Shown: positions 1 through 5,498 of the stretch, one piece after another | How the letters are laid out: every line of letters starts with the position of its first letter | Numbering within the stretch: the stretch's first letter is position 1 | Assembly (NCBI GenBank): GCA_003157485.1 | Contig: PMJQ01000184.1 | Coordinates: forward strand, 41,347-103,206 | Direction of reading: 5' to 3' | From: Ignavibacteriota bacterium | GTDB lineage: Bacteria > Bacteroidota > Ignavibacteria > UBA10030 > UBA6906 | DNA length: 61,860 nucleotides | Made by a program: the position numbers and the translations under genes | Notes under the pieces: model-generated | The model's database searches: none | Seen by the model: only the letters and a program-made list of their open reading frames with translations | What the model was told of the DNA's origin: nothing

Positions 1-123
1 TTCCCGCAGGACTCGAGGCATACGACGGCCGCGTGCGCCAAGTGCCATCAGACCGCGACCAATTATACGCTGTACTGCTGCCAGAGCAGCGGATGCCATA
101 ATACATGCGCGGGGGGCGGCTGA
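1..123 (+). CDS. 3' end of a multiheme c-type cytochrome (truncated by window edge; not in ORF track)
   Basis: Frame 1 reads FPQDSRHTTAACAKCHQTATNYTLYCCQSSGCHNTCAGGG* (TGA 121-123), with one CxxCH and one CX4CH motif. Confidence 0.75.
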   Translation, partial: FPQDSRHTTAACAKCHQTATNYTLYCCQSSGCHNTCAGGG

Positions 124-173: not shown

Positions 174-1769
174 ATGAAAACACATCACTGGCTGTATGTC
201 TTGTCTGTACTCGTTGCGGTGGCGGGGGTTGCCGGTGGCGAGGGACAGACGAAGGAACGCCGCCGGATCTCGGCGAAGGTGACGTACGTCGCTACCGGGG
301 CGTTCTATTTTGACGTCGGCAGGACGAAGGGGGTGGCCGCCAATGACACCGTCACGGTCGTTCGCAGGCTCGTGCCGGTCGGGACCGGCATCGTGACCGC
401 GGTGTCCAGCGGGTCCTCCGTTGCGAAAATCATCTCGGAATCCGGCGCCATTGCACCGGGAGATTCCGTGCTGGAGGTGAAGGACGTCTTGATCGAGGCG
501 CCGGAGGCGGCCTTCGGCGCGGCAGGAGTGGCGGCGAAAAATGCCGCGCTCCTGCAGGATAACAGGGTGAGCGGCCGTGTCGGAATCCAGTATGCCGCAT
601 CGGGAGTGTTCGGCACGGCGCTCGATTTCTCGCAGCCGGCCCTCATCACGCAGCTGAGCGTCACAAGGCTGTTCGGCACGACCTCGACGCTGACGATGTA
701 TGCCCGCTCGTACCGCGATATGTCCGCGGGATACGACCGGTACGGGACAGGATCGAGGAACAAAGTACGGATGTTCGAGCTCTCGCTCACGAACGACGAT
801 CCCCGGTCCTCCTTTGGGTACGGATTGGGAAGGATAACCTCCCGGTACGTCGGGGGGCTCGGCGTGTTTGACGGAGGGCAGATCTATCTCCGAGCGGGGA
901 ATTTCACCGCTGGCCTTCTCGGGGGGACGCAGCCCGATTACACGACGTCGGCGGTGTCAACGGACGAGGCGAAATTCGCGGGCTTCCTCAATTACGGGTG
1001 GGGAGGGGACGTCTTCAAGACATCCGACATCACGTTCGCCTACGGCCAGCAACGGTATCAGGGGAAAATCGACAGGAAGTTCGGCTACTTCCAGGGGACG
1101 CTCAGGTTCGGTTCGGACCTCTACTTCTTTACGAGCACCGAGATGGATTTTGCGCACAGGGACAACGGCGCCGAAGTCGACAAGCCGACTGTCACAAACT
1201 CATTCGTGAACCTCTCCTGGTCCCCCGATTCATGGGTCTCGCTGAATGTGGGCTACGACGCTGTCAGGGCGCTCTATCTTCTTGAAAGCATGAAGATGTT
1301 TCCCGACACGCTCCTGGACAAGACCCTGAAAGAGGGGTACAGAACATACGTGTCGTTCCGCCTGCCTTTCCGGTTCACCCTATCCGGAAATGCGAATTTC
1401 CGGCTCGCCTCGGCAACGACACCGTCCGCGCGCACTCTCGGCTCGACTGTGCGCGTGAGCGACATACTCGACTCGCAGGTCAATTTCGGCGCCCAGTATC
1501 AGGATATACGGGGCCTGTACACGACGGGGAACGACTTGACGCTTGATATGGACCGGTGGATCGCTCAGTCGTTCTCCGTCTCGTTCCGCCTCGACAGGTA
1601 TAGGTATATTATCACGGGGCAGGACCAGCAGCTCCTGACGACGACGGGGACCGTGAGCCTGAACTTCTCGGTATTCCGGTCGTTCTATTCGACGCTGAAT
1701 TTCGATCAGGTATGGGACACGGTCAGGAACAATCAGCGGCTCTACGTCGAGGTGGGGATGCATTTTTAG
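174..1769 (+). CDS. Secreted outer-membrane beta-barrel protein (putative porin of a porin-cytochrome module)
   Basis: ATG 174 follows a GGGGGAG SD. Signal-peptide-like N-terminus (MKTHHWLYVLSVLVAVAGVAGG), many amphipathic Tyr/Phe/Gly beta strands and a C-terminal Phe (LYVEVGMHF) fitting the BAM beta-signal. Confidence 0.7.
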   Translation: MKTHHWLYVLSVLVAVAGVAGGEGQTKERRRISAKVTYVATGAFYFDVGRTKGVAANDTVTVVRRLVPVGTGIVTAVSSGSSVAKIISESGAIAPGDSVLEVKDVLIEAPEAAFGAAGVAAKNAALLQDNRVSGRVGIQYAASGVFGTALDFSQPALITQLSVTRLFGTTSTLTMYARSYRDMSAGYDRYGTGSRNKVRMFELSLTNDDPRSSFGYGLGRITSRYVGGLGVFDGGQIYLRAGNFTAGLLGGTQPDYTTSAVSTDEAKFAGFLNYGWGGDVFKTSDITFAYGQQRYQGKIDRKFGYFQGTLRFGSDLYFFTSTEMDFAHRDNGAEVDKPTVTNSFVNLSWSPDSWVSLNVGYDAVRALYLLESMKMFPDTLLDKTLKEGYRTYVSFRLPFRFTLSGNANFRLASATTPSARTLGSTVRVSDILDSQVNFGAQYQDIRGLYTTGNDLTLDMDRWIAQSFSVSFRLDRYRYIITGQDQQLLTTTGTVSLNFSVFRSFYSTLNFDQVWDTVRNNQRLYVEVGMHF

Positions 1770-1843
1770 GCGGGAACGGAGGCGGGAGTGTGCATGTTCT
1801 GTACCGGGGGGATAGTGCGGCATGATGCAGCACTCAAGGGCGG

Positions 1844-2029
1844 ATGGACTTCACGAGCCTGACGTTCAAGTTCAAGAAGTCTTCGTCGCGCTGCGCGGAC
1901 TGCCACGAGGACGTGCACCGCGGCGGGCTCGGCCCGGCGTGCGCCGGGTGCCATCAGACGGCGACAAACTATACCCAGCACTGCTGTACAAGCAGCGGAT
2001 GTCATAACAGTTGCGCCGGTGGCAATTGA
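1844..2029 (+). CDS. Small cytochrome-c-like ORF, 61 aa (2x CxxCH plus CX4CH), no signal peptide
   Basis: CADCH, CAGCH and CCTSSGCH motifs; paralogous to the 1-123 tail; its stop overlaps the next start (TGATG). Confidence 0.6.
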   Translation: MDFTSLTFKFKKSSSRCADCHEDVHRGGLGPACAGCHQTATNYTQHCCTSSGCHNSCAGGN

Positions 2030-3333
2030 TGAATACGGAGACGCTCATAACGTTCGCCGTTGCGCTCGTGCTGATTCCCGCGGCGGTGATCCCCTATGTC
2101 CGGCACATCCGGGCGCAGGAGAGGAAGGCGAGGAAGAGGTTCGAAGAAGCGAAGATCGCGGGGCTCCAGGCGGCCGTGTCGATGCATCCCCACATCAATG
2201 CGACGGCATGCATCGGGTGCGGAGGATGCACGGATGTGTGTCCCGAGGGGGACGTTCTCGGGGTCATCGACGGAAAAGCAGTACTTCTCCACGGCTCAAA
2301 GTGCGTCGGGCACGGCCTCTGTGCGGAAGCATGCCCCGTGGGCGCCATCGTCATGATGATGGCTGCGCCCGGCAGGAGCGCTGATCTCCCGATCCTCGAC
2401 GAAAACTTCGAAACGACAGTCAAGAACCTGTTTGTCGTGGGTGAGCTGGGGGGAATGGGGCTCATCAAGAACGCGATAACGCAGGGAAAAAAAGTCGTTG
2501 AGCACATCGCCACGCGGCCGCGTGCGGCAAACGGGCTTTACGATGTCATCGTCGTGGGGGCGGGGCCCGCGGGGCTCTCGGCGGGGCTGGCCGCGAAAGC
2601 AGGCAGGCTGAAATACGCTGTTCTGGAGCAGGGGGATGCGGGAGGGACGATTCTGCAGTATCCCCGCCGGAAGATCGTGATGACGTCACCCGTGGAGCTC
2701 CCGCTCTGGGGGAAGGTGAAGTTGACGGAAGCATCAAAGGAGACCCTCCTGGATCTCTGGAAGCAGGTGCTTGTCAGGACCCAGCTGAAGGTGAATACGA
2801 ACGAGAAGGTCCTCGACATCATCGATGCGGGGGGGCATTTCATTGTGAAAACGGCGGCCGGCGAGTACCCGGCGCGCCATGTCGTGCTCGCGCTCGGCCG
2901 GCGTGGTACGCCGCGAAAGCTCGGCGTTCCGGGGGAAGATCTGGGGAAGGTGACGTACCGGCTCATCGATGCCGAGACGTACAAGGATTGCGACGTCCTC
3001 GTTGTGGGAGGAGGAGATTCCGCCGTCGAAGCCGCCGTTGGTCTTGCGCTCCACGGCACAAACCGCGTAACGCTCTCGTACCGCAAGTCGGAGTTCACGC
3101 GCTTGAAGGAACGCAACGCGAGGCGGCTCGATGAATTCAGGAAAAGGAACGCGGTGAATGTCCTTCTCGGATCGAACGTGAAGGAGATAGGCGAGAAGGA
3201 AGTCCGGATCGAGACCTCTGATGGTATGGGCACGCTGCCGAATGACTACGTGTTCATATTCGCCGGGGGGGAGATGCCCTTTGAATTCCTGAAGAAGGCC
3301 GGGATCCGGTTCCAGGAGCAGGTCGTGGCCTGA
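2029..3333 (+). CDS. Membrane-anchored ferredoxin-domain FAD/NAD(P)H oxidoreductase (thioredoxin-reductase/YpdA-like fold)
   Basis: N-terminal TM helix; CIGCGGC..VCP and [10 protein letters not shown] FeS motifs; GAGPAG (FAD) and GGGDSA (NAD(P)H) motifs; no redox CxxC. Confidence 0.8.
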
Positions 3334-3431
3334 GGCGCCCTCCTCCTTGCCGGTCGCCGTGCATTCCTCTGTTCCGTTCCGTATATTTCTTTCCGCATCA
3401 TGTCCCCTCATTTCAGGAAAGACAAAGACAG

Positions 3432-5498
3432 GTGAGCCTGTTCTCGCTGACATCCGAGTTCCAGCCCAACGGCGACCAGCCGGAGGCCATCCGCCAGCTT
3501 TCCGAAGGGGTCGCACGCGGCGACCGGTTCCAGACCCTCCTCGGAGTGACGGGGAGCGGCAAGACGTTCACAATATCGAACGTCATTGCTGGGGCCGGCA
3601 AGCCCGTCCTCGTGATGTCGCACAACAAGACGCTCGCCGCGCAGCTGTACGGCGAGTTCAAAAGGTTTTTCCCGCGCGACAGGGTCGAGTTCTTCATAAG
3701 CTACTACGATTACTACCAGCCTGAAGCGTACGTCCCTTCCACCGATACGTATATCGCCAAGGACGCCTCGATCAACGACGAGATCGACAGGCTGCGCCTC
3801 CGGGCGACGAGTGCGCTCCTGAGCGGTGACAGGAACGTGATCGTCGTCGCATCCGTGAGCTGCATTTACGGCATCGGCGCTCCCGAGGAATGGGCGAGCC
3901 AGGTCGTCGTTGTGCGGAGGGGGGAGAAGCTCGAACGGAACGATCTCCTCAGGAAGCTTCTGAATATCTATTATGCCCGCAACGATTTTGAATTCGTCCG
4001 GGGGACGATGCGGGTGCGCGGCGACGTCGTCGAGGTCATCCCGGCGTATGAGAACGAGGAAGCCCTCAGGATCGAGTTCTTCGGGGACACCGTCGAACGG
4101 ATCTCCTACATCAACAGGATGGACGGAAGGGTCCTGGGCGAGACGGAGTATGAAGTTGTCTATCCCGCAAAGCAGTTTGTGACCTCGAAAGATACGCTGG
4201 ACCGTGCAATGAAGGGGATCGAAAAGGAGCTTGAGGAGCGTCTGGGAGATCTTCGCACCGCCGGAAAACTTGTCGAGGCGCAGCGGCTGGAGCAGCGCAC
4301 CCGTTTCGACCTGGAGATGATGCGCGAGGTTGGTTACTGTTCGGGGATCGAGAACTATTCCCGCCATATCGCGGGACGCCCGCCGGGCTCCCGCCCGGCG
4401 TGTCTCCTCGACTATTTCCCGAAGGACTTTCTCCTTGTCGTGGATGAATCCCACGTTACCGTCCCCCAGGTGGGCGGGATGTATCACGGCGACAGGTCGC
4501 GCAAGCTGACGCTTGTGGAGCACGGATTCCGTCTCCCTTCAGCCCTCGACAACCGTCCCCTCACATTCGACGAGTGGGAGAAGATGGTCCCTCAGGTGAT
4601 ATTCGTCAGCGCCACGCCGGCGGAGTACGAACTTCAGAAGAGCAAGGGGGTGATCGTGGAGCAGGTCATCCGTCCCACGGGCCTTGTGGACCCGGAGGTC
4701 GAGATCCGGCCGGTGAAGAACCAGATCGACGACCTGATCGCTCAGATCCGGGACCGTGCGTCCAGGAAAGAACGCGTTCTCGTGACGACGCTGACGAAAC
4801 GGATGGCGGAAGATCTGACTGACTACCTCAACGACATCGGCGTCAGGGTGCGGTACATCCATTCGGAGGTCGATGCGCTCGAGCGGGTGGAGATCCTCCG
4901 GGACCTGCGTCTCGGTGAGTTCGACGTCCTCATCGGCGTCAACCTCCTCCGCGAAGGGCTCGACCTTCCCGAGGTATCGCTCGTGGCGATACTCGACGCC
5001 GACAAGGAGGGCTTTCTCCGGTCGGAACGCTCACTGATCCAGACGGCGGGACGGACCGCCCGGAACCTCAACGGGCTCGTCATCCTGTACGCCGACACGG
5101 TGACAGGTTCGATGCAGAGGATGCTCGATGAGACCCGGAGGCGGAGATCGAAGCAACTTCAGTACAACATCGACAACAACATAACGGCCGCCACGGTTTT
5201 CAAGACGATCGACGAGGTCCTGGCGGCCACCGCCGTCGCGGACGTTAAGGCAGCCCGCGACGCAAGGCGGGAGCGGGCGAAGATGCCCCTTGTTGCGGAG
5301 AGCGTCGTTCGCTATCTGACGGCGGAACAGAAACGGGACCTGATAGGCGAACTGCAGAGCGAAATGGAGCGGGCGGCGAAGGACCTGGAGTTCGAGCGCG
5401 CCGCCGGACTGCGCGACGAGATCGCGAAACTCGAGGAAATGACGACGCGCTCAAAAGGCGCCCGCCCGTCCCCGCCTCAGGAGGACGGTCCGCCGTAG
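3432..5498 (+). CDS. uvrB: Excinuclease ABC subunit B
   Basis: [10 protein letters not shown] Walker [31 protein letters not shown] and the C-terminal UVR motif ([11 protein letters not shown]). Confidence 0.98.

Follow-up and report, generated by a model that had tools for sequence, protein, structure and literature searches.

The forward-strand gene at nucleotides 2029-3333 of the DNA analysed here encodes a 434-residue iron-sulfur (Fe-S) flavoprotein, P0001. This DNA (hereafter the window) is a 61,860-nucleotide stretch of an Ignavibacteriota genome, taken from contig PMJQ01000184.1 of assembly GCA_003157485.1 (G000:C222:41347-103206). The flavin module of the protein is a circularly permuted version of the thioredoxin reductase (TrxR)/YpdA fold, and it is preceded in the same chain by a predicted membrane anchor and a two-cluster ferredoxin domain. 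The gene closes a cluster of five that resembles the PCC3-type porin-cytochrome conduits, and its relatives elsewhere are repeatedly found beside, or fused to, the membrane protein and the multihaem cytochromes of such clusters. On the sequence data gathered here, the flavoprotein would probably, though far from certainly, be the cytoplasm-facing NAD(P)H dehydrogenase of the conduit.

From the N-terminus onwards, the chain consists of a transmembrane (TM) helix, the two-cluster ferredoxin, a GD-motif segment for flavin adenine dinucleotide (FAD), the FAD Rossmann motif and the NAD(P)H domain. The corresponding features are:

2029..3333, forward strand: Fe-S flavoprotein gene, from the open reading frame (ORF) listing; the translation of 434 residues is intact
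2038..2106, forward strand: N-terminal TM anchor, residues 4-26; hydropathy maximum from residue 6, mean 2.45
2185..2358, forward strand: two-cluster ferredoxin domain, residues 53-110; Pfam Fer4 dicluster match to residues 54-110
2209-2244, forward strand: Fe-S motif 1, CxxCxxCxxxCP, residues 61-72
2302-2337, forward strand: Fe-S motif 2, CxxHxxCxxxCP, residues 92-103
2311..2313, forward strand: codon CAC of His95 at the CysII position of motif 2, read directly from the sequence
2365..2538, forward strand: permuted FAD segment, residues 113-170 (strand, GELGG, long helix); profile, hhalign and hidden Markov model (HMM) matches
2539..3333, forward strand: YpdA/TrxR-fold body, residues 171-434; Pfam Pyr_redox_3/Pyr_redox_2 match to residues 171-430 (Pyr_redox_3 to 174-430)
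2557-2574, forward strand: GAGPAG, the FAD Rossmann motif, residues 177-182
3007-3024, forward strand: GGGDSA of the NAD(P)H domain, residues 327-332
3076-3087, forward strand: SYRK of the NAD(P)H domain, residues 350-353

The protein belongs to a large family. More than 8000 close matches were found, nearly all of them 432-436 residues long, and at E <= 1e-30 the family comprises 822 clusters of 50% identity. The automatic names in the databases vary between 'NAD(P)-binding domain-containing protein', 'thioredoxin reductase' and 'putative YpdA family bacillithiol system oxidoreductase'. Because of this uniform length, and because the frame upstream is closed by a TAA at 2005-2007, the ATG at 2029 is the likely start. 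A TTG start at 2011 was rejected, as the ATG agrees with the length of the homologues. A 520-residue form in the databases (P0002, 94% identical) was treated as a gene-calling artefact; its 86 extra residues correspond to the spacer upstream of the gene (described below), read in a non-coding-looking frame that the same TAA closes in the window.

Architecture of the permuted Fe-S flavoprotein

In YpdA/Bdr (TIGR04018; PDB 7A76, 7A7B, 7APR) the order of the elements is collinear: the Rossmann motif is followed by the NADPH domain and then by the GD segment. In the flavoprotein, however, the GD segment is placed ahead of the Rossmann motif. The first-pass annotation had suspected such a permutation from the order of the motifs and had noted that the chain ends shortly after the NADPH domain, and both observations hold: residues 113-170 precede GAGPAG, while GGGDSA and SYRK are followed by the chain end at residue 434, exactly where the canonical proteins run on into their GD segment. 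The evidence is drawn from a profile search, a structural alignment and an HMM of canonical YpdA-like proteins.

A phmmer search against solved structures aligned residues 173-428 to residues 6-264 (of 328) of Bdr/YpdA, and a weak second stretch placed residues 125-141 on residues 278-294 of the same structures. A profile built from residues 113-170 alone (43 family members) was then compared with all PDB sequences. It matches the GD-motif strand and the next helix of flavoproteins with two dinucleotide-binding domains, and in every case this region lies downstream of the NAD(P)H domain: residues 405-448 of 456 in GltD (E 7e-5, the best score), 293-334 in SthA (E 6e-4), approximately 305-350 in the dihydrolipoyl dehydrogenases, 299-341 of 343 in TrxR and 270-290 of 342 in ferredoxin-NADP+ reductase (FNR). 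The counterpart of residues 113-170 in the canonical relatives is thus formed by their C-terminal ~50 residues.

The same picture emerges when 18 canonical YpdA-like proteins from the collected loci are used to build an HMM. This HMM matches 50 of the 53 family members in swapped order, the body falling on HMM positions 3-255 and residues ~120-160 on positions ~262-303. When the segment is moved in silico behind the body, one collinear alignment is obtained that reaches HMM position 279, as against 252 for the native order. The genome also encodes a canonical TrxR separately (329 residues; TIGR01292, 395.6 bits), which sets the flavoprotein apart from the housekeeping enzyme. An hhalign comparison places segment columns 15-49 on residues 269-303 of this TrxR, and the flavoprotein body (residues 173-417) aligns to its residues 6-245. 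The permutation is cut at a loop that, in the canonical enzymes, joins the final strands behind the NAD(P)H domain to the GD strand. The usual G-D motif is replaced by GELGG, of which G138, E139 and G142 are invariant. The flavoprotein represents a clean natural circular permutation of the thioredoxin reductase fold, with fused, unfused and re-ordered relatives for comparison.

The known relatives differ from it in several respects. YpdA/Bdr provides the best NCBIfam match, covering profile positions 1-264 of 316, but its score of 169.6 bits stays far below the cut-off of 339.9. Both proteins have two Rossmann domains in a TrxR-like fold and lack a CxxC redox centre. However, the Cys of the Bdr motif GGGPCG (Cys14) has been replaced by Ala in GAGPAG, the membrane anchor and the two-cluster ferredoxin are additions, and the genomic context is one of cytochromes and not of thiol metabolism. 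Against the thioredoxin reductase family TIGR01292 the flavoprotein scores 86.7 bits versus the 343 required, and the redox-active CxxC is missing. The TrxR-type FNRs (Chlorobaculum tepidum 3AB1, Bacillus subtilis YumC 3LZW and B. cereus 6GAR) are soluble and collinear, use a separate ferredoxin as substrate and carry a C-terminal extension over the flavin; the flavoprotein is instead permuted, with a fused ferredoxin and a membrane tether. GltD, NfnB, DsrL and SudA also place an Fe-S domain at the N-terminus, ahead of the domains for FAD and NAD(P)H. Nevertheless, these GltD-type proteins are collinear and soluble with another kind of Fe-S domain, and the body of the flavoprotein is much closer to YpdA/TrxR. 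A literature search found no description of the protein, although most subscription journals were out of its reach and the absence is thus unproven.

The ferredoxin domain scores above the Pfam gathering thresholds (Fer4_10 41.6 vs 25.5; Fer4_2 38.2 vs 24.5; Fer4 36.3 vs 21.1). A standard eight-Cys ferredoxin contains two CxxCxxCxxxCP motifs, whereas here seven Cys are found and motif 2 carries a His. When the polyferredoxin repeats of MvhB and FwdF are aligned to the domain, His95 faces their CysII. The His occurs in all 120 close homologues that were compared and is at least 90% conserved in alignment A1. Among 129 distant representatives (one per 50%-identity cluster with recognisable motifs) it is found in 112 and is thus not invariant; the remaining 17 contain D (4), V (4), Y (3), I (2), F (2), A (1) or T (1). 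The CysII of motif 1 is variable as well: 59 of the 129 (~45%) have S, T, A, I or V there, and every one of these carries the His of motif 2. By contrast, C61, C67, C71, C92, C98 and C102 are invariant.

As the CysII position is substituted in both motifs, both Fe-S sites can apparently be three-Cys sites, the signature of [3Fe-4S] clusters or of [4Fe-4S] clusters with a non-Cys ligand. Precedents for such ligands are the Asp of Pyrococcus ferredoxin and the His of the distal cluster of [NiFe] hydrogenase and of N5 in complex I. Since V, I, F, A, T, Y and D are tolerated at position 95 and the CysII of motif 1 is so often replaced, the sequences lean towards three-Cys, [3Fe-4S]-like sites, a question that they do not settle. 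The conserved Cys-to-His (and Cys-to-Ser) replacement offers a ferredoxin domain in which the type of cluster can be determined.

Seven of the eight Cys residues of the flavoprotein are located in the ferredoxin domain, with C321 as the only outsider, and the CATC of the genome's own TrxR is aligned to a Cys-free stretch. The motif SYRK aligns with the YR of the NADPH-dependent YpdA/Bdr, and its Arg352 is at least 90% conserved. Three more claims of the first-pass annotation can be judged from these data. The His-containing second motif is borne out, as is the absence of a redox disulfide; the preference for NADPH, which had been read from SYRK, is plausible in view of the YR shared in the alignment with an NADPH-dependent enzyme, and NADPH is probably the nucleotide used.

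The N-terminal residues 4-26 form the sole strongly hydrophobic stretch of the protein. They are followed by a basic helix (residues 27-50, seven K/R versus three D/E), and the predicted model displays a single helix spanning residues 3-44. No twin-arginine or other export signal was found at the N-terminus. Because the anchor is trailed by a basic helix and an export signal is absent, the redox domains should be cytoplasmic. The N-terminus is accordingly predicted to face outwards and the remainder to lie in the cytoplasm, with the ferredoxin domain closest to the membrane.

Genomic coupling to a membrane protein and multihaem cytochromes

The cluster (locus L006) starts with the gene for the membrane protein P0272, followed by those for a 20-haem cytochrome, a 24-haem cytochrome, the exported protein P0273 and the flavoprotein; the next gene is uvrB. 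The two cytochromes measure 567 residues (20 CXXCH) and 657 residues (24 CXXCH; L006 10128-12101), with Pfam matches to Cytochrome_C7, c3 and MtrC/MtrF domains. The parts shared with PCC3 are these two cytochromes and a five-helix membrane protein of ~290 residues, with a probable barrel protein of ~530 residues in the place of the porin. PCC3 is described as a set of four genes in the accessible parts of He, Barco, Emerson and Roden (2017, PMC5566968), Hoover et al. (2023, PMC10734462) and a 2025 Sideroxydans preprint, and none of these parts mentions the flavoprotein; neither do Arbour et al. (2020) and a 2026 preprint on peat. In the clusters compared here, it is a constant fifth member that is sometimes fused to another.

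P0272 comprises 292 residues from its likely start. Its predicted model shows five helices, the fourth of which carries SGVIG, and a pair of WX3HX13H motifs supplies the His pairs H95/H109 and H265/H279 (in the numbering of P0272 residues 27-318). PCC3's inner-membrane protein is likewise characterized by ~300 residues, five TM helices, an SGxxG located on TM4 and a WX3HX13H on each of TM3 and TM5. He et al. (2017, PMC5566968) proposed that the PCC3/PCC4 members of this type bind two b haems and connect to the quinone pool. The five helices, the SGxxG of helix 4 and both WX3HX13H motifs are kept across the 36 sequences of the P0272 family; of the four His, all but one are invariant, and that one is conserved to at least 90%. 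P0272 is thus a probable dihaem-b membrane protein.

P0273 occupies the position of the PCC3 'porin', with a signal-like N-terminus, a terminal Phe and no Pfam match. A protein of 511-543 residues, likewise without a Pfam match, is encoded at the same position in L001-L003 and L008-L011. From these features it is probably an outer-membrane barrel. In relatives at 65-86% identity (L001-L003) all five genes are present and their order is unchanged. At 40-48% identity (L008-L011) the order becomes membrane protein, flavoprotein, cytochrome, cytochrome and barrel.

The neighbourhoods were also scanned more widely, with one genome per species and a radius of 10 kb. The scan comprised 33 loci that encode a full-length flavoprotein with ferredoxin and permuted module, spread over ~11 phyla (Calditrichota, Gemmatimonadota, Acidobacteriota, Nitrospirota, Bacteroidota, Marinimicrobia, Omnitrophota, Proteobacteria, Planctomycetota, Myxococcota and Eisenbacteria). 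A P0272-type gene was found in 28 of them (three times as a fusion) and a cytochrome with at least nine CXXCH likewise in 28; the cytochromes tied to the flavoprotein loci carry 20-60 haems. None of the 30 canonical YpdA/TrxR-like loci from the same scan contained a P0272-type gene or such a cytochrome. In a separate sample of 151 genomes across the phylum, full-length flavoproteins (E <= 1e-147) and full-length membrane proteins (E <= 1e-76) occurred in the same 18 genomes, belonging to at least nine families. In 17 of these 18 the two genes lie at most 9 kb apart on one contig.

Gene fusions point in the same direction. In P0124 the flavoprotein is followed by the membrane domain (BLASTP to P0272, E 4e-26), whereas in P0140 the membrane domain comes first (homology to P0272, E 2e-12); the predicted topology of the anchor is compatible with both orders. 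The flavoprotein has been fused to a multihaem cytochrome in P0132, and in P0171, P0178 and P0268 it is preceded by multihaem (and FHA) domains and one membrane helix. A complex prediction from the alignments of the flavoprotein and the membrane protein gave a score of 0.19 (mark 0.32) and was used neither for nor against an interaction.

Since the ferredoxin is internal, the protein is membrane-anchored, and it is tied to a P0272-type protein and to cytochromes by neighbourhood, co-occurrence and fusions, the initial label of 'ferredoxin:NADP(H) oxidoreductase' is too narrow.

A number of family members are much larger. P0129, P0153, P0178 and P0268 measure 1000-1400 residues and contain either long C-terminal low-complexity linkers with TPR repeats or N-terminal FHA and multihaem domains, a hint that some forms of the module are regulated or scaffolded. 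Related architectures were also observed. Two proteins of 777-915 residues (L052:9917-12247 and L056:1016-3760) begin with the permuted GD segment and the body and lack the N-terminal ferredoxin; behind the body come a Fer4_5 (NapH/CcoG-like) region and, at the C-terminus, a dicluster. They represent a second architecture on the permuted core, and no cytochromes are encoded nearby. In L062:411-3873 and L063:3158-8502, the gene of a P0272 homologue is directly preceded by that of a collinear TrxR-like flavoprotein with two cNMP domains and a Fer4_11 dicluster; in L063 the latter gene is also located upstream of one for a 10-haem cytochrome. The collinear protein is probably the unnamed 'redox gene' of the PCC4 clusters. 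As such architectures pair in the same way, the combination of a pyridine-nucleotide flavoprotein and Fe-S centres with the P0272-type family is a recurring theme, of which the permutation marks one large branch.

Proposed role and rival explanations

The following mechanism can be proposed for the conduit. The flavoprotein would be held at the inner membrane by its single N-terminal helix, and the permutation would set the new N-terminus of the flavin module beside the ferredoxin domain and the anchor. The permuted module would bind FAD and oxidize NAD(P)H, probably NADPH. The electrons would then leave the FAD one at a time through both Fe-S sites of the fused ferredoxin domain, one presumably with four Cys ligands and the other with three Cys and the conserved His, as a [3Fe-4S] or a His-ligated [4Fe-4S] cluster. 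Subsequently, they would be passed to the cytoplasmic-side haem of the P0272-type protein and across the membrane. From the b haems they would reach the 20- and 24-haem cytochromes c, the outer-membrane barrel and finally an extracellular acceptor. The outward direction is favoured because of the redox potentials and the membrane potential (general knowledge). The cofactor content, the donor, the direction of electron flow and the physical contact between the proteins are what we infer here.

Overall, the system can be likened to a split NADPH oxidase (NOX) or ferric reductase (FRE) that is wired to a multihaem chain and bypasses the quinones. In NOX/FRE and bacterial MsrQ-type systems, which serve as the working analogy, electrons of cytoplasmic NAD(P)H are passed by a flavin to a pair of bis-His b haems. 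HX13H pairs on two helices stack these haems across the membrane, and an acceptor on the far side is fed from them. He et al. (2017, PMC5566968) already pointed out that the haem motifs resemble those of NOX/ferric reductase. The likeness of the two systems is, however, functional only. NOX/FRE combine an FRD membrane domain with a dehydrogenase of the FNR fold, whereas P0272 gives no match to Pfam FRD (PF01794) and the dehydrogenase has a TrxR fold with Fe-S sites. In addition, the dehydrogenase is mostly a separate polypeptide here and the acceptor is a multihaem cytochrome chain. The more general proposal that PCC3-type conduits, in at least ~11 phyla, are fed directly by NAD(P)H through a split NOX-like module instead of being quinone-linked, with the three-Cys-plus-His site setting the potential step from flavin to haem, may be right or wrong with about equal probability.

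Several points weigh against this role. P0272 matches no Pfam family at E 0.01 (FRD, PF01794, included) and its predicted model has no informative structural match, so its haem binding is a prediction from the motifs. A membrane-protein gene was not detectable within reach at 5 of the 33 loci, partly owing to contig ends, and the complete co-occurrence in 18 of 18 genomes overstates the number of independent events, as related genomes are not independent. For the permutation itself, the total HMM score of the de-permuted minus the native sequences averages -0.1 bits; moving the segment changes only the extent of the collinear alignment and not the total score, which makes this test supportive but weak. 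In the window, a 259-bp relic-bearing spacer separates the P0273 gene from the flavoprotein gene, and the two may or may not be co-transcribed here. Moreover, we know of no biochemistry on any member of the flavoprotein family, and to our knowledge PCC3 has never been tested biochemically either.

The published models of PCC3 join the membrane protein to the quinone pool and propose for it the role of a quinone-active cytochrome b (He et al. 2017, PMC5566968). Accordingly, an NAD(P)H:menaquinone oxidoreductase could be made up of the flavoprotein and the dihaem protein; alternatively, the dihaem protein could act as a quinol dehydrogenase. In both cases the cytochromes would be fed by the quinone pool and not directly by NAD(P)H. 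Many dihaem membrane cytochromes b bind quinones (general knowledge), and the data on genomic coupling fit this explanation equally well. However, a quinol dehydrogenase requires no cytoplasmic partner with NAD(P)H, FAD and Fe-S sites, no quinone-site motif was identified, and direct fusions such as P0171, where the flavoprotein and the multihaem cytochrome part share one polypeptide and are separated by a single membrane helix, suggest a dedicated chain. A quinone-linked function is therefore considered unlikely. It is improbable that the chain runs in the reverse direction, with electrons from Fe(II) or cathodes passing through the cytochromes to reduce NAD(P)+ for biosynthesis. PCC3 was first described in Fe(II) oxidizers (PMC5566968 and PMC10734462), and the flavoprotein is found beside such clusters in Burkholderiales/Hydrogenophilales loci (L032, L036, L044 and L053). 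Nevertheless, electron transfer from Fe(II) or the cytochromes to NAD(P)+ is uphill and its inward course opposes the membrane potential (general knowledge), the cluster contains no energy-coupling subunit, and the host here is a Bacteroidota-type genome.

The strict association of the pair with cytochromes of 20-60 haems would also fit a task in maintenance or maturation, in which a periplasmic reductant is provided for the assembly or repair of these very large cytochromes without respiratory flux; cytochrome c maturation does need such a reductant (general knowledge). The known routes are thiol-disulfide relays (DsbD/CcdA), though, whereas the membrane protein conserves His pairs and not Cys pairs and the flavoprotein has no redox-active Cys, which makes this task quite improbable. 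The least credible explanation is that of a stand-alone enzyme with unrelated neighbours, either a YpdA-like disulfide reductase for low-molecular-weight thiols or a soluble-type ferredoxin-NADP+ reductase. It can draw on YpdA/Bdr and the TrxR-type FNRs, which are the top matches among families and structures, and on the database name 'putative YpdA family bacillithiol system oxidoreductase'. Yet the TIGR04018 score is half of the cut-off, the Cys of the Bdr motif GGGPCG is an Ala, and the protein is membrane-anchored, possesses a ferredoxin domain of its own and is linked to the membrane protein and the cytochromes by co-occurrence and fusions.

The inner-membrane entry to multihaem conduits is known only in a few model organisms, where it is formed by quinol dehydrogenases such as CymA, ImcH and CbcL. 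If the flavoprotein is indeed the NAD(P)H dehydrogenase of the conduit, a quinone-independent route for extracellular electron transfer would be added to these. Many bacteria, among them Bacteroidota, Acidobacteriota, Gemmatimonadota, Planctomycetota, Myxococcota and Proteobacteria, could then put NAD(P)H electrons on extracellular acceptors without quinones. The reading of extracellular electron transfer potential from genomes would change, and a compact, testable module would become available for bioelectrochemistry. The finding makes the inner-membrane entry of the widespread PCC3 conduit directly testable.

The cluster and its spacer in this window

Upstream of the flavoprotein gene, the window contains three further features that belong to the cluster:

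1..123, forward strand: 3' end of the 24-haem cytochrome c gene, whose start lies upstream of the window; the CXXCH frame runs on to position 123
174..1769, forward strand: P0273, an exported protein of 532 residues in the PCC3 'porin' position; signal-peptide-like N-terminus and C-terminal Phe
1840..2029, forward strand: relic of a cytochrome gene 3' end between the P0273 gene and the flavoprotein gene, from alignment to the cytochrome 3' end

The spacer between the last two genes of the cluster measures 259 bp, compared to only 13-50 bp in the close relatives L001-L003. It contains sequence that is ~80% identical to the 3' end of the gene for the 24-haem cytochrome, a copy that includes the TGATG stop/start junction; nucleotides 1852-1953 are 89% identical to C222:39713-39814. 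Within this relic, a 61-residue ORF without a signal (1844-2029) encodes two CXXCH and one CX4CH, and its stop overlaps the start of the flavoprotein gene (TGATG). The copy is probably the relic of a rearrangement that once set the flavoprotein gene directly behind a cytochrome gene. A promoter and terminator scan of nucleotides 1700-3500 gave no signal above chance.

At the left edge of the window, an apparent frame change is observed in the 24-haem cytochrome gene (L006 11990-12123). The listed ORF ends at position 101 in an Arg-rich frame, while the CXXCH frame stops at 121-123. Two N are present at this spot in L006, and a real frameshift fits the data as well as an assembly or masking artefact. 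Immediately upstream of the cluster, on the same strand, a hybrid sensor kinase of 1050 residues is encoded (L006:4065-7217; G000:C222:33411-36563). It contains a receiver, several PAS and a HATPase domain, and may regulate the five genes.

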